A stretch of DNA of 39,611 nucleotides, taken from the UHGV virus genome UHGV-0179848; one strand, written 5' to 3'. A model generated the notes under the pieces. That model was not told where the DNA came from, searched no databases, and worked only from the letters and a program-made list of their open reading frames with translations. Positions 28,401 through 35,217 of this stretch are shown here, piece by piece. The translations under genes were made by a program, and so were the position numbers. The stretch is from a virus. Every line of letters begins with the position of its first letter. Positions within the stretch are counted from its first letter, which is position 1.

Positions 28401-28901
28401 TCAGACTTTCGGCAAATCGTAGCGACATAACCATTCATCCGCCGAACGGCGGGCCTCAAGACCGGGGAGTTTCACCCCCTTCGAATAAATCCAGCGGATG
28501 TACTGCTTACAGGACGCGGGCATCTGCCCGGCATTGATCAGGCGCAGAAGCGTGGAGTTGCGGAAGTTCGTTTCACCAGCCCAGAAGATCCACGAAGCCA
28601 GCGCCACCGTCTGACCACGGGTAAGCGGCACCTGAACACGCCGATCAATGGCCGCAAAGGCCCATTTCATGTCCTTTTCCAGTAGTTCCAGGCATTCTTC
28701 ATCCGTCAGGGTCATACCCGGTTTCACATCCGGGCCGGTATGGCCGTAACAGATGGTTGGTGTACCGGTGGGATCGATATACGTGGAGTTTTCTTTCCCT
28801 TCCCAGTAACCGGTGTAATGCGTGGTAATGGTGAACGTCCCGGCACCGGCCAGAACAAGGGCAATCAGCTTTTTACGCAGTGGTGCGGGGAGTTTTGGCA
28901 T
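28401..28901 (-). CDS. lys: SAR endolysin (phage lysozyme, GH24-like)
   Basis: N-terminal signal-anchor-release segment LIALVLAGAGTFTITT followed by lysozyme catalytic region YWEGKENSTYIDPTGTPTICYGHT. Confidence 0.85.
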   Translation of the reverse strand: MPKLPAPLRKKLIALVLAGAGTFTITTHYTGYWEGKENSTYIDPTGTPTICYGHTGPDVKPGMTLTDEECLELLEKDMKWAFAAIDRRVQVPLTRGQTVALASWIFWAGETNFRNSTLLRLINAGQMPASCKQYIRWIYSKGVKLPGLEARRSADEWLCRYDLPKV

Positions 28902-28972: not shown

Positions 28973-29395
28973 TCAGAAAAGTGGCGGTTGCGTTCTTGCC
29001 AGATGCAGACGGCGCTGTTCGCGTATGACGGTATAAATCTGGGTTTCTGACATCCTGTAATGGCGGCGCAGGGTTTCAATTTTTTCGCCCTGGCTCCAGC
29101 GGGAAAAAATCTCATTATTGCGCAGTTCGGTGAAAAGGGATTCACCGACCGGGAGATAATAACCACGCCCGCCCATGTACCCGGCCTGTGCGGCCGCAAC
29201 TTTACGGGCAAGCATTCCTGCCTGAGCAGGTTCAATCCCCTGACGGTGCAGTTCAGCACTGATCACATCAACCAGGTCCCGCAGCGTGCCGGGCCAGTTC
29301 TTTTTCAGCTCATCATCAGGAATGTCATCCAGACGGTCAATCAGCGCGTGCAGCTGTTCGCTGTCACCAAACATGCTCATCTGTGTTTCAGCCAT
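28973..29395 (-). CDS. Mor/C-family transcriptional activator (only family member in window)
   Basis: 140 aa with C-terminal HTH region resembling Mu Mor; sits between early region and lys. Confidence 0.75.
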   Translation of the reverse strand: MAETQMSMFGDSEQLHALIDRLDDIPDDELKKNWPGTLRDLVDVISAELHRQGIEPAQAGMLARKVAAAQAGYMGGRGYYLPVGESLFTELRNNEIFSRWSQGEKIETLRRHYRMSETQIYTVIREQRRLHLARTQPPLF

Positions 29396-29437
29396 ACCCG
29401 CCTCCGGTCATCATTACACAGGGCAAGTTTAAAATAA

Positions 29438-29461
29438 AAATCCCGCGCTGTGGCGGGATTT
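29438..29461. terminator. Stem-loop terminator, copy 1 of a duplicated hairpin
   Basis: AAATCCCGC-gctgtg-GCGGGATTT, 9-bp perfect stem, A-run upstream and T after. Confidence 0.5.
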
Positions 29462-29735
29462 AGAGGCGCTGTAAATCATAACCCGAAATGAGCTGTGTAT
29501 TTATTGATCATTTTCCGGTGTAACTATATGATAAAGATCGTTTTTATTTTTAAAAATACAAACCCTGAAGGAGTTTTTCTTATCAAAAAGCTTGTGCATA
29601 TTGCGGGTTATTGTTGTTTCATCAACATGAAAACCAATTATCCCAACTCTTAAAGCACACCAGGCTTGCTCCAGTGCAAAAACAAATAATTTCAGTCTGC
29701 CTGACAGCGTTCCACCGGAATAAAGGAAGATATCC

Positions 29736-30158
29736 ATGAAACAACCTCCATCTTTGCTTTTATCGTGCCCACCAGAACTGGCCCATGAACTCAATGATCT
29801 GGCGAAAGAGTATAAACTTACAAATCATAATATAGAAGCAGCAACACTTAGTGCTGCCGGAAGCGATATTGTATTGATCGTTCTGGCCGCAGCTTCATGC
29901 GATGGGTTCTGGCAGGCATTAGCCAGTATGTTTCAGACGTGGTTACATCGTAAACCAACAAAACAAACACCCCCGGAAAAGAAAGTTATTCGTAGCGTCA
30001 TTGTTCGTAGCTGGGAACACTATCAGGAGACAACTAAACAAACTGAATTTTATAACTTTGATGCTGATGAGCTGGCTAAATTGATAGCGTTATATGAAAA
30101 ACCAGATGAAACAATTGGTTGCATAATCCCGTCAGAAACGGAAATTCAGGAAAAATAA
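29736..30158 (+). CDS. Moron protein of unknown function (140 aa), opposite strand to all neighbours
   Basis: AAGGAAG Shine-Dalgarno upstream; preceded by ~270 bp AT-rich promoter-like DNA; stop codon abuts hairpin copy 2. Confidence 0.6.
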   Translation: MKQPPSLLLSCPPELAHELNDLAKEYKLTNHNIEAATLSAAGSDIVLIVLAAASCDGFWQALASMFQTWLHRKPTKQTPPEKKVIRSVIVRSWEHYQETTKQTEFYNFDADELAKLIALYEKPDETIGCIIPSETEIQEK

Positions 30159-30182
30159 AATCCCGCACTGTGGCGGGATTTG
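30159..30182. terminator. Stem-loop terminator, copy 2 of a duplicated hairpin
   Basis: AAATCCCGC-actgtg-GCGGGATTT; flanked by A-run and T-run so could act on either strand. Confidence 0.5.
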
Positions 30183-30184
30183 GG

Positions 30185-30694
30185 TTAACAGGGGAATGAT
30201 TTTTCATACAGCCTGCAAACGCGCTCATAACTCATCACTGCACGCTCCGACATATCCAGGGCTGCCAGCATTTTGCGGCGGTGCCAGCGTTTGAGACGCT
30301 CCAGCACATCAGAGGCCAGCTCGGGGTGTTGCTCCAGCCACTGCCAGTTAGCCACACCTTCGCCGCCGTTCTGCGCGGCCGTCTGCGATTGCACCCAGCG
30401 GTTAAGGGCCGTTTCCGCACCATCAGAAATAAAGCCCTGCCGGTGCATCACTTTCCAGATGGCGCGAATTTTGGCGGTCACCGTACCCGGCTTTAAGGCC
30501 CGGTTAACCGGTTTCTGACGCACTTTAAAACCGCGTTTTTTGAAAACATCCAGTACGCGGGATAACTCATCCGGTGACATATCCCGGCAACTGGCTTTAC
30601 CGGTGGCTGCCAGCAGTGCGGATGTATAGGTTTCATCATCCAGAGCAAGCTCGCGTTTTGCCACATGAATGGCAGATATCAGTTTTCCTCTCAT
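30185..30694 (-). CDS. GemA/gp16-like early protein
   Basis: N-terminus MRGKLISAIHVAKRELALDDETYTSALLAATGKASCRDMSPDELSRVLDVFKKRGF resembles remembered Mu gp16 family proteins; sits just before mor as in Mu. Confidence 0.55.
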   Translation of the reverse strand: MRGKLISAIHVAKRELALDDETYTSALLAATGKASCRDMSPDELSRVLDVFKKRGFKVRQKPVNRALKPGTVTAKIRAIWKVMHRQGFISDGAETALNRWVQSQTAAQNGGEGVANWQWLEQHPELASDVLERLKRWHRRKMLAALDMSERAVMSYERVCRLYEKSFPC

Positions 30695-31002
30695 ACCGTA
30701 TTTACCTTTTTACGGACATGGAAAGCCTTTTCTGGCTCATTCCACCGGATATGATGCGTTGGCGGAATAATCATTATGTGCCAGCCATCTCTGGTTGTTA
30801 TTCGGCAGAAAAACTCACCGTTGTATAACACAATGGCCTGCTGAATAAGCGCATCCGCAGCCAGCTCAAGCAGATATCTTTTATCAAAAAGGCTGATAAT
30901 TTTCCGGCATAACCACCGGGTGATAACAAATGCGCCGAAAAACGATGTGATATATAAACACCAGAACAGCAGAGAAATATTGTCCGTTATTTGCTCATCC
31001 AT
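30691..31002 (-). CDS. Hypothetical small membrane protein (103 aa)
   Basis: Hydrophobic N-terminal segment LLFWCLYITSFFGAFVI; coupled to neighbours. Confidence 0.45.
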   Translation of the reverse strand: MDEQITDNISLLFWCLYITSFFGAFVITRWLCRKIISLFDKRYLLELAADALIQQAIVLYNGEFFCRITTRDGWHIMIIPPTHHIRWNEPEKAFHVRKKVNTV

Positions 31003-31327
31003 TGTGTATCTCCCGTAATTCCGGTAAAGCCGAAATATGGCACCAGTGCGTCACCTGTCCATCCTCATCTTCAAGGCAGGCTCCGGTTTCTTCATCAACA
31101 AAAAAACCTTCATACCCGATATGGCCGATGCGCAGCTCCTGTCGGTGACCGTACTGAACAATCAGTACAACAGCCTCCATATCAGGCGGGAAAGCATCAT
31201 TCAGTGAATGCCAGGGATAACCGCGCAAATCCCCGAAATAAACCCCGGTCAGGGTTCCGCCACAGACCGGCATCCCGGCGGCACATACCAGAGGTTCGTC
31301 TGATTCAACAAATAAGGTCGTTATCAT
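30995..31327 (-). CDS. Hypothetical early protein (110 aa)
   Basis: ORF in operon context with overlapping start/stop. Confidence 0.45.
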   Translation of the reverse strand: MITTLFVESDEPLVCAAGMPVCGGTLTGVYFGDLRGYPWHSLNDAFPPDMEAVVLIVQYGHRQELRIGHIGYEGFFVDEETGACLEDEDGQVTHWCHISALPELREIHNG

Positions 31328-31875
31328 GGCGTTAACTCCCGTAATACAGCGTCCCCGGCAGTCCGGCGATGGTGATAAATAAAATTCACCGTACTCTCGG
31401 ATAATTCAAATTTCTCGCCTATTTCCCGGAAGGTAAGACGTCGTGGTGATTCAGCATCCCGTAATTCACGAATAAGATGAACATCATCGTCAGGTATACG
31501 GGTGAAGGGCAGCAATTCTCCGTATTTTTTCATGCTTACGCCAATATATCGCGCCCGATTGTGGACAGAATCCCGGTCTCGCCCCAGATATTCTCCTATT
31601 TGCTTACCGGTCATCGTTCTGGCATTTTTTCGGATAAATTTATCTTCATCATGTTTAAATCTTGGACGTTTGCATTTGAGCAACTCCGGGTAAGTACCGC
31701 GTAATAAAACAATCCGGTTATGTACACCCCAGAAACTTCTTTTTACCCTGACAGCAATATCCTTAACCGGGGTGGATGAATAAAGCGCAATCAGCAGCGC
31801 ATCTTCTTCAGGTGTCCACGGACGGACATGAGCGGGGGCGCGACCTTTTCGCCCCATGGGTTGTAAAATCATCAT
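31324..31875 (-). CDS. Hypothetical early protein with three tandem HTH-like repeats
   Basis: Three internal repeats (WTPEEDALLIALY..., DEDKFIRKNARTMTGKQIGEYLG..., DDDVHLIRELRDAESPRRLTFREIGEKF...) visible in the translation. Confidence 0.5.
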   Translation of the reverse strand: MMILQPMGRKGRAPAHVRPWTPEEDALLIALYSSTPVKDIAVRVKRSFWGVHNRIVLLRGTYPELLKCKRPRFKHDEDKFIRKNARTMTGKQIGEYLGRDRDSVHNRARYIGVSMKKYGELLPFTRIPDDDVHLIRELRDAESPRRLTFREIGEKFELSESTVNFIYHHRRTAGDAVLRELTP

Positions 31876-31878
31876 ACA

Positions 31879-32394
31879 TCACCCCCTGACTCGCTTTTCA
31901 GCAGCATAAAACTCATCAGACAGAATTTCGGTCATTTTCTGATTTGCGGGTTTTACGCCGCACTCAAGGTAAATCACATCGTCAACGCAGAACCACTTCA
32001 CAGGGCCAAACATGATTGCCGAGAAATCAATACCCAGCCAGAACAACAGTGCATCGGTTCTGGCATACGTGACGGGCGAATATTCACGCCACAGACTGTT
32101 AAGTTCGTCAGAGGCAACGCGCAGGGCTTTGGGAATACGTGATGTGCGCGGTGTGCAGCTCCAGCCATTCGACGCAGTCGGTTTTCGCCATAAGTCGCGA
32201 TGAAAAGGATATTTGTCATCCATAAAGCGCAGCCCCTTAAAACAAAAGCCACTGATACTGAATTCAAATACCGACCGGCACGCAACATTCAGCACGGCCT
32301 CAAGGCGTTTCGCCTCATCTTTTACCGTCTGGCAGTCCTGCTGGTATTTTTGCCACGCAGCCAGCGCGGCAGGGTTTGATGTTTTAAAGAACAT
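31879..32394 (-). CDS. Hypothetical early protein (171 aa)
   Basis: ORF in early operon; no recognised family. Confidence 0.45.
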   Translation of the reverse strand: MFFKTSNPAALAAWQKYQQDCQTVKDEAKRLEAVLNVACRSVFEFSISGFCFKGLRFMDDKYPFHRDLWRKPTASNGWSCTPRTSRIPKALRVASDELNSLWREYSPVTYARTDALLFWLGIDFSAIMFGPVKWFCVDDVIYLECGVKPANQKMTEILSDEFYAAEKRVRG

Positions 32395-32927
32395 TACTCT
32401 ACCTCCGCAGAAATCGCGGCAGGCGCAGCCGTCCGGTCAACAATCAGGTAACGCAGAACATGTTCGGTGATATTCCAGCCGCTTAAACCGCAGATAATGA
32501 CGCCCAGGCGAATGTCGATATACGCCATCACAAACTGGGGCACGCCTTCTTTCATGGCCTGCTCATCAACTTCAGCCACCACATAAACGGTTTCACAGGT
32601 CAGAACGCCCTGAGCAAATTCCCACGCCATCGACGGAATATCATGCCCCTCAATCCACGGCAGGGATTTTCTGAAGCTGCACCACTGAACATCATCAGCC
32701 GCACCTTCCTGGCTGCATTTGCGACGAACCGGCTGCACCGGGCGGGGACGCGGAATATCATAAAAACCGTTACATTCCGTCAGCACCCCGGCATCGACCG
32801 CATCACGCAGAAAATAAACCATCGAGGATGGCGGCATATTCATTTTTTCAGCCAGAATGCCGCAGGTCAGACGCCCGTAAATACTCAGCCAGTTTTTAAC
32901 CCCTTCAAGCACTTTTGCATCAATCAT
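32394..32927 (-). CDS. Hypothetical early protein (177 aa) with possible N-terminal winged-helix domain
   Basis: ORF in early operon. Confidence 0.45.
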   Translation of the reverse strand: MIDAKVLEGVKNWLSIYGRLTCGILAEKMNMPPSSMVYFLRDAVDAGVLTECNGFYDIPRPRPVQPVRRKCSQEGAADDVQWCSFRKSLPWIEGHDIPSMAWEFAQGVLTCETVYVVAEVDEQAMKEGVPQFVMAYIDIRLGVIICGLSGWNITEHVLRYLIVDRTAAPAAISAEVE

Positions 32928-32930
32928 GAA

Positions 32931-33473
32931 TTATTCCTCCGTCAGCGCCACATATTCAGAATGTTTAATCTCCTGGCATTCTTCAGGAATACCCCCTTTT
33001 ATTTCCCTGCCATAAGCGCCTACTTTAAACACCACGCACAGGGCATCACGGGAGAGCGACGGGGTCCACCAGGAGTCCATGTTAAACATGGAGGGGATTC
33101 TCATTACCCCCAGCTTTTCACAGAGCCAGACAAGGAAATCAGGACGCTTTCTTAACTCGCGTTCAGCGGCTTCAATCATTGCGGCAATCGCCGGTCCTTC
33201 AGGGCATGACTCATCAGGTCTGGCAATAAAGCACGGTCCGTCCCCGATAAAAGCCACATCATCGCGCTTACGCCAGCCCGCAGGCAGAGTACCAGAAAAA
33301 TAAAACTCACTGATTACGTCCATGGCAAACGGCTTTAAGCGCAATCCGGCAGCGCCTGTATTTTTCAGTAACGCCCGAAGAATACTGTTGCGTAGCGGTA
33401 AAACAGTCTGTTGATATTTGGTGAAATATTTATTTGTCTGCACACGGTCTAATTTGAAATAAAAATATGCCAT
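32931..33473 (-). CDS. Hypothetical early protein (180 aa)
   Basis: ORF in early operon. Confidence 0.45.
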   Translation of the reverse strand: MAYFYFKLDRVQTNKYFTKYQQTVLPLRNSILRALLKNTGAAGLRLKPFAMDVISEFYFSGTLPAGWRKRDDVAFIGDGPCFIARPDESCPEGPAIAAMIEAAERELRKRPDFLVWLCEKLGVMRIPSMFNMDSWWTPSLSRDALCVVFKVGAYGREIKGGIPEECQEIKHSEYVALTEE

Positions 33474-33570
33474 ATATCCTGTTCCTTATTTTCAGTTTAC
33501 AGGCGCAGGCAGTCCCCTGACGCGAGCGCCATACTTAAAACGATGTGATATTTAAAGATTTAATGCGGTG

Positions 33571-34101
33571 TTATTTATTCAGTCCGGCGTCCTGTTCAAA
33601 AGGCTCGACATAAAAACTTTCAGCGCCTTTATTCACCTTAATACCGGCAATGCCTTTCACTGCATCCGGCTCCGCCAGGACCGCTTCCTTGTTCACTTCC
33701 TCTTTCGTGCGGATGAATCGCTCAAGCCCCATACGGCGCAGCATTTCAATCACACCTTCCACATCACGACTGACGCTGCATGATGGATTCCCCAGTCGCC
33801 ATGACACCGTTCCGGTGGTCAGATTGGCAGTTTTGGTTTTGCCGCCGTTCGTCAGCTCATCACGGTTGGTTTTGCACCAGTCCTGAATCCCCTTAAAAAG
33901 CACTTTGATTTCTTTTTTAAGGTTTTCAATCTGCGGCGTATAACGGGCGGTGATTTCTGCCACTTCATCATTCATCGCTGTTTCCAGGCGCAGCGCCTCT
34001 CGCTGAATATCGCCCAGGGTGCGGATATCGCGGCTGACCTCTTCACGGGTCTGCGGTGCCGCCTCTGCTGCGGCCTTTAATTTTGTAACGCGTTTTGCCA
34101 T
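33571..34101 (-). CDS. gam: Gam host-nuclease inhibitor (Ku-like DNA end-binding)
   Basis: MAKRVTKLKAAAEA...LGDIQREALRLETAMNDEVAEIT...CKTNRDELTNGGKTKTANLTTGTVSWR is collinear with Mu Gam. Confidence 0.9.
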   Translation of the reverse strand: MAKRVTKLKAAAEAAPQTREEVSRDIRTLGDIQREALRLETAMNDEVAEITARYTPQIENLKKEIKVLFKGIQDWCKTNRDELTNGGKTKTANLTTGTVSWRLGNPSCSVSRDVEGVIEMLRRMGLERFIRTKEEVNKEAVLAEPDAVKGIAGIKVNKGAESFYVEPFEQDAGLNK

Positions 34102-34112
34102 TTTGTTTTTCC

Positions 34113-34433
34113 TTATTGCAATGTATCTGGTCCGTTCTGAACAGAACGGCGTTCAACGGAGCTGCTTACCCCCATGGCCTGCATGGAACCCTGTAGTTCA
34201 TCTGTCAGAAACTGAATGATTGTGGGGCTGTGATATTTAAGAATTTGTGCATAAACATCACAGGGTCCTGCCGGTCTGTTCTCTGTATCACGTTCGATTT
34301 TTACCGTGGCAGTAACCCCCTCCGTGATTTCCTCACTATCATTACCGGCTGGCTTTACTTCATGCATTACGTGGTCAAATTCAAAAATAACGCGTACTTT
34401 GCTCATGGAATTACCCCTGTTGATTAAATTCAT
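34113..34433 (-). CDS. Small early protein, paralogue A
   Basis: MSKVRVIFEFDHVMHEVKPAGN... paralogous to the adjacent 34411-34683 product. Confidence 0.5.
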   Translation of the reverse strand: MNLINRGNSMSKVRVIFEFDHVMHEVKPAGNDSEEITEGVTATVKIERDTENRPAGPCDVYAQILKYHSPTIIQFLTDELQGSMQAMGVSSSVERRSVQNGPDTLQ

Positions 34434-34683
34434 TACCTTTAATAACCCCGGAACGCATGCTCATATCTTTCATGAGCGCACTGGCTTTCATTGCCACAAG
34501 TTCAGCAAAGTCTCTGCTTTCCGCGAGCATAACCACCCCAAAAATCATGGCAGGTCCATCACCTTTCTGCTTTATCCCGGTTGAACGTATGTCCAGACTT
34601 ATCCCCATGCGCACTGTTCCATCCGCGTTTTTATGGATAACGTGCTCCTTGTATTCGAAAATAATGCGTACGACTTTACTCAT
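34411..34683 (-). CDS. Small early protein, paralogue B
   Basis: MSKVVRIIFEYKEHVIHKNADG... paralogous to 34113-34433. Confidence 0.5.
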   Translation of the reverse strand: MSKVVRIIFEYKEHVIHKNADGTVRMGISLDIRSTGIKQKGDGPAMIFGVVMLAESRDFAELVAMKASALMKDMSMRSGVIKGNEFNQQG

Positions 34684-34962: not shown

Positions 34963-35217
34963 TCACTCCTCCCAGTAAACCGTGCAGCCGCTGATGCGGG
35001 TAGCCTTCACACGGCGGCGCAGGCCGTTGGTCTGTATGGTGATTTCAATTTCACCGGTTCCCTTAACTTCGCTTACCGGCGGCGTGGTTTTCAGGGCATA
35101 ACGTTGTGGGTAGCGTTTGCTGCGTTCCAGTACCGCACCGGCAAGTTCAGTCAGACGGCGTGCACTGTTCAGGGAGTCGAATAAATTCATTTTTTTACCG
35201 CAGGATTGCATATTCAT
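34963..35217 (-). CDS. Hypothetical early protein (84 aa)
   Basis: ORF in early region. Confidence 0.4.
   Translation of the reverse strand: MNMQSCGKKMNLFDSLNSARRLTELAGAVLERSKRYPQRYALKTTPPVSEVKGTGEIEITIQTNGLRRRVKATRISGCTVYWEE

Follow-up and report, generated by a model that had tools for sequence, protein, structure and literature searches.

The window analyzed here is the whole 39,611-nucleotide stretch of the virus genome UHGV-0179848. Six minus-strand ORFs (O1–O6) lie at positions 30691–33473 between Gam and a GemA-like gene, with both flanks confirmed by Pfam. They are listed below from the Gam side together with their boundaries.

33571..34101, minus strand: Gam, the upstream boundary (Pfam Phage_Mu_Gam, 1.5e-41; 57% identity to Mu Gam over 175 aa)
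33474..33570, minus strand: Gam-O1 spacer of 97 nt, the block's sole real intergenic gap by junction analysis
32931..33473, minus strand: O1, 180 aa, putative divergent DUF5420-family protein (phrog_2260, 1.7e-74)
32394..32927, minus strand: O2, 177 aa, Mu gp11 orthologue in which a disordered linker joins a predicted N-terminal winged helix to a Gp11_C domain
31879..32394, minus strand: O3, 171 aa, Mu gp12 orthologue (Mu-Gp12 family, PF26885) with an alpha/beta fold
31324..31875, minus strand: O4, 183 aa, pI 10.1, three tandem homeodomain/Myb-like HTH repeats at about residues 15–62, 67–118 and 121–175
30995..31327, minus strand: O5, 110 aa, pI 4.4, optional cassette gene (phrog_6925, 9.5e-51)
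30691..31002, minus strand: O6, 103 aa, optional cassette gene with an N-terminal transmembrane anchor (phrog_17269, 3.7e-33)
30185..30694, minus strand: GemA-like gene, the downstream boundary (Pfam GemA, 1.3e-29; 47% identity to Mu GemA)

The junctions of O1–O6 are tight (+3 to −8 nt), every one of the six has an SD-like motif upstream, and the GemA-like gene overlaps the O6 stop by 4 nt. All six are under purifying selection (dN/dS 0.09–0.34); together with the PHROG matches and the SD-like motifs, this marks them as real genes and led us to reject a reading as spurious ORFs. Neither a promoter-like nor a minus-strand terminator-like site was called in the Gam-O1 spacer, the coding strand within the block holds none of the terminator-like sites we looked for, and promoter-like sites numbered 4 against 7.2 expected by chance. 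An Rfam scan of the whole window returned zero matches. An earlier note on this DNA had described six co-oriented, translationally coupled ORFs of 103–183 aa running from Gam to the GemA-like gene within the semi-essential (SE) early region of a Mu-family prophage; all of this is as described, and the Mu literature agrees with the setting (PMC3820752, PMC4553209). Among 5,426 complete E. coli genomes, 233 carry the same prophage type, and the six, which are probably co-expressed, are the usual "semi-essential" early genes that a Mu-like prophage has in E. coli.

The same note held that the block had no recognisable Mu counterparts, which is wrong for O2 and O3. O2 is 68.6% identical to Mu gp11 over 172 aa (1e-82), sits as gp11 does between gam and the gp12 homologue, and matches Pfam PF25754 (Gp11_C) at E 5.7e-41 across the full profile (1–78 of 78), its 139.2 bits exceeding the cut-off of 27. 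O3 shares 55% identity with Mu gp12 over 168 aa (4.5e-67), and a precomputed PF26885 label is carried by 49/49 of its homologues, one of them 98% identical to it. By sequence and gene order, the positional orthologues of O2 and O3 in Mu are gp11 and gp12, and homologues of both were present in every locus compared. Structure prediction, which the note had proposed as a check, gave a confident model for O3, yet no solved structural analogue was found for it; the winged-helix-like region noted in O2 stands as a model-based prediction, called where confidence in the model is low (pLDDT ~60–70). A basic loop in O3, C-x2-R-x2-R-x-P, is invariant. PDB sequence searches using single sequences and family profiles of O1, O2, O3 and O5 gave no match, and we found no functional data in the literature on Mu gp11/gp12, DUF5420 or SE-region functions. 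Judged by their sequence matches, the genes other than O2 and O3 fall into phage families that are catalogued but have no known function.

For O1, Pfam gave no DUF5420 match at E ≤ 1 (gathering score 26 bits), but relatives at 24–40% identity score 50–52 bits on PF17457 (DUF5420), and the 196-aa and 192-aa alleles that O1 matches by BLASTP (E < 1e-5) reach 50.3 and 52.3 bits. Membership of O1 in DUF5420 is transitive only, through these relatives; P0014 reaches just 15 bits on the same model. O1 is optional, being present in 35 of 46 loci and absent from the other 11 and from Mu, and it is the fastest-evolving of the six, with a dN of ~0.8 against distant relatives. We considered whether O1 and O3 could be diverged paralogues, as their motifs are collinear by eye and the BFVD matches of O3 are similar in size, and rejected this at the sequence level (BLASTP E 0.46; hhalign P 0.15; column-shuffled controls scoring at least as high as the real alignment in 24/100 cases). 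For a 192-aa gene found between gam and O1 in one locus (L044), a MazG-like reading has no support from Pfam.

The O1-O2-O3 trio could be a DNA-transaction module, serving to boost transposition-replication or to protect and process DNA ends, and it could underlie 'arm', which we take to map to the gp11/gp12 part of Mu. Mu, SfMu and prophages of E. coli, Salmonella and Citrobacter all keep the order gam-(DUF5420)-gp11-gp12, and both the predicted winged helix of O2 and the invariant basic loop of O3 are in keeping with such a role, as is the listing of 'arm' (amplified replication of Mu) among the SE functions with no gene assigned (PMC4553209). However, the trio shows homology to no replication, recombination or nuclease-inhibitor family, O1 itself is dispensable, and distant relatives keep the trio while a DUF3164 protein replaces Gam, so that a strict link to Gam does not hold. 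We consider this module unlikely, although it survives better than most of the other alternatives.

Downstream of the trio, O4 matches phrog_323, 'transcriptional regulator, D5-like' (5.3e-58), and its three three-helix HTH repeats, which the note had picked out, are recognisable in a repeat alignment. Its Pfam HTH and Myb matches all fall below gathering thresholds; the O4 family profile matches Cbp2 (2lvs_A) over repeats 1–2 with a moderate 27.6 bits (1.8e-5) and c-Myb R2R3 at 0.008. The P2-like phage Shae_phiSM has a full-length relative annotated as 'DNA binding protein', and we predict that O4 binds DNA, with which its basic pI of 10.1 is in keeping.

O5 belongs to a small family, of which 1.8 billion proteins yield only 14 representative clusters; it is carried by 27 of 36 loci and was not found in isolated phage genomes. 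Though optional, it evolves more slowly than any other protein of the gam-mor segment, with a dN of 0.12 compared to 0.27–0.47 for its neighbours. Recent horizontal transfer was rejected as the reason for this conservation because synonymous sites are saturated (pS 0.61–0.70) just as they are in the neighbours. Being dispensable and at the same time very strongly constrained, O5 is therefore the best candidate in the block for a specific host-protein binder. Matches to DUF551 (PF04448) came only from two distant relatives, P0192 (15.9 bits, E 0.025) and P0196 (15.2 bits, E 0.04); with a gathering score of 22 and no match for O5 itself, we did not accept O5 as a member. It is possibly DUF551-like, since the W..L....P ... 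VTHW..P..P pattern of these small phage proteins is found in its C-terminal half, while an extra N-terminal segment of ~35 aa sets O5 apart from them.

O6 is the membrane protein that the note had pointed to. Its hydrophobic maximum spans residues 9–27, and the C-terminal ~70 aa are probably cytoplasmic by the positive-inside rule, because the N-terminus is acidic and R29, R33 and K34 come after the transmembrane segment. It is carried by 13 of 36 loci in alleles of 89–99% and ~52% identity, and it too was not found in isolated phage genomes. The slot from O4 to gemA is mosaic, with 18 arrangements across 36 related loci and a content that differs greatly even among near-identical prophages, a pattern in keeping with genes for accessory functions or host interaction.

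The view of the block as foreign to Mu holds unevenly, being weak for O4, which has a relative in Mu gp9/E8 (8e-9), and for O1, which has a DUF5420 counterpart in SfMu, while O5 and O6 do stand without any relative in Mu. The note had gone on to propose the six as candidates for anti-defence or host modulation, a suggestion with which the variable O5/O6 slot is compatible and for which no defence link was found in any of the six. In PADLOC none of the proteins matched a defence family apart from one weak homing-endonuclease match for O4 (E 0.02), and NCBIfam and PDB sequence searches returned no named function and no solved or named anti-defence protein. No catalytic or anti-defence activity is assignable to O1–O6. 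The note would have abandoned its proposal had each protein proved homologous to a Mu protein of established function; the homology we found is of another kind, because the Mu homologues are themselves without an established function, and genes of the Mu SE region are likewise uncharacterised (PMC3820752, PMC4553209).

A broader version, in which enterobacterial Mu-like phages use the O4-to-gemA slot as a dedicated host-interaction or counter-defence cassette site, with O5 as an inhibitor clamping a highly conserved host protein and O6 as its membrane-anchored partner or a second effector, and in which, separately, gp11 and gp12 form a new kind of DNA-binding complex behind 'arm', is in our estimate about as improbable as the DNA-transaction module. 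Somewhat less probable still is that all six are non-Mu novelties acting as anti-defence or host-takeover factors. The SE region of Mu also houses kil, gam and gemA (PMC4553209, PMC3820752), the slot is highly variable between near-identical prophages, O1 evolves fast and is variably present, and a small, acidic, constrained O5 is what would be expected of a protein binding a conserved host protein. The conservation of the gp11 and gp12 orthologues in every locus is difficult to reconcile with this, as are the negative PADLOC, NCBIfam and PDB results; furthermore, selection on all six is purifying and not diversifying, and the alternative cassette genes are likewise of unknown function. Very unlikely, finally, is that O5 and O6 are morons benefiting the lysogen (e.g., superinfection exclusion by O6) through low prophage expression and not through a lytic role. 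In its favour, O6 is membrane-anchored, both genes are optional, and low-level transcription of SE genes from Pe is reported in Mu lysogens, with the suggestion that some may benefit the host (PMC3820752); against it, the two are translationally coupled within the early operon, have no promoter or terminator of their own above chance, and are not homologous to known exclusion proteins.

The explanation we prefer, and as a whole consider fairly probable, is that the block makes up the distal half of the early, semi-essential operon in a Mu-like prophage of enterobacteria and is built in three layers: a gam-side backbone, an HTH-repeat gene and a cassette slot before gemA. The backbone consists of O1, O2 and O3 as the conserved part beside gam; next comes O4, a basic protein with three linked HTH repeats and a relative of Mu gp9/E8, which has two, and then a slot in which genes are swapped in and out ahead of gemA, filled here by the small, acidic, constrained O5 and the small, membrane-anchored O6. 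If the block behaves as Mu does, transcription starting at the early promoter would continue through these genes, as along the remainder of the early transcript, and a long early transcript with uncharacterised SE genes is indeed described for Mu (PMC3820752). O2 and O4 may act through DNA binding and could tune early transcription or transposition-replication, with the linked HTH units and basic linkers of O4 perhaps reading an extended or repeated site, as in Cbp2, Myb and Pax. O5 and O6 would be accessory proteins, each engaging a conserved host partner, the former in the cytoplasm and the latter at the inner membrane.

Some 40 years after the semi-essential region of Mu became known, most of its genes are still without a function. 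The block examined here is an ordinary prophage region containing new members of known, uncharacterised families, and a gene-by-gene map now tells apart the Mu counterparts (gp11, gp12 and the gp9 relative) from exchangeable cargo. The universally conserved gp11-gp12 pair is a target open to direct study in Mu, and O4 is a three-HTH protein for which a DNA target could be found.

The closest comparison is with Mu itself, where gp11 and gp12 (Mu_11 and Mu_12, formerly E10–E13) are semi-essential early proteins; O2 and O3 are their full-length homologues and repeat both the gene order after gam and the 1-nt overlap. The two differ on either side of this pair: upstream, the DUF5420 gene O1 separates gam from the gp11 homologue in the window, and downstream Mu has gp13, gp14 and Mu_54 where the window has O4, O5 and O6. 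O1 is instead comparable to SfMu gp11, named in RefSeq as a DUF5420 family protein, with which it shares 40% identity along its full length as well as its position, with gam on one side and the Mu-gp11 homologue on the other. An N-terminal YFK and a C-terminal IKHSE..A..EE are invariant among O1 and the DUF5420 proteins of Mu-like phages, although O1 falls short of the Pfam model that relatives at 24–40% identity pass. Repeats 2–3 of O4 align with Mu gp9/E8 at 31% identity; gp9 has two repeats in 95 aa and lies upstream of gam, whereas O4 has three in 183 aa and lies downstream of it, and SfMu gp09 carries the same name as phrog_323. Outside phages, O4 shares imperfect, homeodomain-like HTH repeats and basic linkers with the CRISPR-repeat-binding proteins Cbp1/Cbp2 and with Myb R2R3, and its three repeats equal the number in Cbp1; the mechanism by which linked HTH units bind DNA has been described for Cbp2 (PMC3597662). 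Cbp1/Cbp2 are archaeal and Myb is eukaryotic, their contexts are unrelated to that of O4, and the likeness is one of fold and DNA-binding mode alone.

The window carries a Mu-like prophage on its minus strand, and the six ORFs that the earlier note had claimed between Gam and the GemA-like gene (O1 to O6) were all found, at exactly these positions:

32931-33473, minus strand: O1, 180 aa
32394-32927, minus strand: O2, 177 aa
31879-32394, minus strand: O3, 171 aa
31324-31875, minus strand: O4, 183 aa
30995-31327, minus strand: O5, 110 aa
30691-31002, minus strand: O6, 103 aa

The flanks match Pfam Phage_Mu_Gam (1.5e-41) and Pfam GemA (1.3e-29). Junctions from O1 through gemA measure, in order, +3, -1, +3, -4, -8 and -4 nt, and a GGAG/AGGA-like motif lies 5′ of each start codon in O1-O6, bearing out the translational coupling that had been proposed. 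The 97-nt Gam-O1 spacer is the only real one in the block, no terminator-like hairpin was found on the coding strand within it (the first lies just past gemA), and promoter-like sites there are no more frequent than expected by chance. PHROG families were assigned to all six ORFs (E 4e-33 to 4e-106) and their median dN/dS against close alleles of related loci is 0.09-0.34; these matches and values, with the start-codon motifs, rule out spurious ORFs. Together with the junctions and the lack of an internal terminator, they show that O1-O6 are real, tightly coupled genes, which, judging from the pattern in Mu, are probably co-transcribed.

A 4.1-kb stretch of this region is 100% identical in E. 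coli STEC2018-607 and occurs at ≥90% identity in 233 of 5,426 complete E. coli genomes. Within the phage collection its sole occurrences are in two Stx-phage records, as the "inserted Mu-like phage". The PGAP annotation is hypothetical protein for 6/6. GC content is split across the window (1-39611), at 55-62% in the late/structural region (~8-29 kb), 46-52% in the early region including the block (29-36 kb) and 44-50% in the first 7 kb.

A direct BLASTP comparison with the early region annotated for Mu (AF083977) contradicted, for O2 and O3, the claim that the six proteins lack Mu counterparts. O2 is a homologue of Mu gp11 (68.6% identity, 172 aa, 1e-82) and O3 of Mu gp12 (55% identity, 168 aa, 4.5e-67), and the two keep the order and position of their Mu counterparts. 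O2 also contains the Pfam "Phage Mu Gp11 C-terminal domain" (5.7e-41), while PF26885, a newer Pfam family, is found on 49/49 database homologues of O3, and PGAP names an O3 relative "Mu-Gp12 family protein". Overall confidence in the O2 model is low (pLDDT 60.5); three helices make up its N-terminal unit, residues 51-88 form a disordered linker, and the C-terminal helix-plus-sheet domain is better defined. The model supports the suggested winged-helix-like N-terminal region, at low confidence in that part. Matches homologous to O3 come from E. coli and Salmonella, and a one-genome-per-species scan (185,579 species) detected the gp12 family in Citrobacter braakii alone, so the family is very narrow. 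O2 and O3 are present in every one of 55 IMG/VR loci, which were anchored on O2.

The same BLASTP found no Mu homologue of O1, O5 or O6, and for O5 and O6 the original claim stands. For O1 it holds for Mu itself, which lacks the gene, but not for the Mu genus: Shigella phage SfMu (genus Muvirus) encodes a "DUF5420 family protein", 40% identical to O1, exactly between gam and the gp11 homologue. Since diverged O1-position alleles of related prophages (24-38% identity) also match Pfam DUF5420 over the full length of that model (~1e-13), O1 is a divergent DUF5420 protein. Its relatives are few (14 clusters), it is missing from 11 of the 46 loci spanning its position, and among the genes of the segment it evolves fastest (dN ~0.8 against distant relatives), with an invariant N-terminal YFK and C-terminal IKHSE..A..EE. 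Paralogy of O1 and O3 failed a shuffle-controlled profile comparison. One related locus, L051, carries two tandem diverged DUF5420 genes (4862-5991; 182 and 201 aa) 5′ of its gp11 homologue, one of O1 type and one of a distant type. The more distant Mu-like prophages L045-L052 have a 212-aa DUF3164 protein (Pfam 8e-77; e.g. L045 4697-5335) at the Gam position, directly upstream of the DUF5420-gp11-gp12 trio, and at 1e-5 none of these ORFs matched Gam.

O4 is also not without a Mu relative, as its residues 66-166 align with Mu gp9/E8 (31% identity, 8e-9), a protein of 95 aa whose gene lies upstream of gam. Its three tandem HTH-like repeats, noted earlier, align with a common pattern and match solved HTH structures by profile. 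Pfam matches are sub-threshold (Myb for repeat 1, several HTH families for repeat 3), and O4 corresponds to PHROG 323, "transcriptional regulator, D5-like" (5e-58). The family profile matches Cbp2 of Hyperthermus butylicus (2lvs_A, 1.8e-5, repeats 1-2), c-Myb R2R3 (0.008) and the Mos1 transposase HTH region (0.014). Cbp2 binds repeated DNA through two homeodomain-like HTH units with a basic linker between them, and its homologue Cbp1 has three repeats (PMC3597662). Because of the Cbp2 and c-Myb matches, the Cbp2 architecture and a pI of 10.1, O4 is best read as a predicted linked-HTH DNA-binding protein. A P2-like Citrobacter phage encodes a full-length relative in its early region, and versions with two repeats occur in phages of Vibrio and Klebsiella and N-terminally in mycobacteriophage HNH-endonuclease and methylase genes, so the repeat unit would be a widely shared phage DNA-binding module. 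Of the 36 loci spanning O3-gemA, 30 carry O4, which is represented by two alleles (≥90% and ~72% identity).

When ORFs were called and clustered in the 55 loci, the O4-gemA stretch showed 18 gene arrangements among those 36. This slot draws on O5 (27/36), O6 (13/36), homologues of Mu gp13 and gp14, and at least 10 other small genes; those scanned against PHROGs are all of unknown function there. The window's arrangement, O5 then O6, is common to only two loci; no homologue of Mu gp13, gp14 or Mu_54 is present in the window, and neither O5 nor O6 was found in any isolated phage genome of the collection. The O5 family is tiny (14 representative clusters among 1.8 billion proteins). In distant Mu-like prophages carrying it, O5 is 81-84% identical, against 56-68% for O2, O3 and GemA. 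Recent transfer is excluded, since saturation at its synonymous sites is on a par with theirs (pS 0.61-0.70) while its dN is 0.12 against 0.27-0.47, which points to strong purifying selection on O5. Its conserved pattern, W..L....P...VTHW..P..P, resembles DUF551, but membership is unproven, as only two distant family members match that model, both below threshold. The membrane protein expected among the six is O6, whose single N-terminal hydrophobic segment and charge distribution suggest an N-out, C-in topology.

Taken together, the block would be the semi-essential early region of a Mu-family prophage, of an ordinary kind: a conserved backbone adjoining gam is followed by a putative DNA-binding HTH-repeat protein, and a slot for exchangeable cassettes precedes gemA. 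The earlier note was right about the region and its uncharacterised functions, as those of the Mu region largely are (PMC3820752, PMC4553209); literature searches on gp11, gp12 and DUF5420 gave no functional data. Its anti-defence proposal gained nothing: O1-O6 matched no defence profile (PADLOC), a weak homing-endonuclease match of O4 aside, no NCBIfam model, and among solved proteins of known function only HTH and winged-helix folds. Anti-defence action is thus still a prior, with O5 and O6 as its most plausible candidates and O2 and O3 as the least plausible. The six are additional members of already known, uncharacterised families. Three leads stand out as most useful: the gp11-gp12 pair, which can be tested in Mu itself; the DNA that O4 targets; and O5, constrained yet optional.

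Features neighbouring the block are as follows:

34963-35217, minus strand: Kil relative, 84 aa, downstream of the B-like ATPase
29736-30158, plus strand: insert ORF, 140 aa, containing a hydrophobic stretch; Pfam gave no informative match
around 29501-29737, minus strand: small ORF within the 720-bp insert
28973-29395, minus strand: Mor/C-family activator gene, the only one in the window
28401-28901: lysozyme gene, directly after the activator gene

The 84-aa ORF matches the C-terminal half of Mu Kil (36% identity, 1.8e-5), and PGAP names its orthologue in another strain "Kil protein family". Directly upstream of gam (34113-34683, minus strand) are two small genes of 106 and 90 aa, weak paralogues (23% identity over 86 aa, E 2e-4) with no homologue in the Mu early region by BLASTP. 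Between gemA and the Mor-like gene lies a 720-bp AT-rich insert (29431-30181), with direct repeats of 31 nt at its two ends (29431-29461 and 30151-30181, 90% identical) that each contain a terminator-like hairpin, AAATCCCGC...GCGGGATTT. Just 4 of 5,426 E. coli genomes contain it; in WL1277 and like relatives gemA and mor are adjacent. The insert looks like a rare moron placed by terminator duplication. The activator resembles Mu C (40% identity, 1e-32) more than Mu Mor (28%). In Mu, mor and C are separate genes on either side of a middle operon, whereas the window has a single activator gene, so the transcription cascade of this prophage may be one step shorter than that of Mu.
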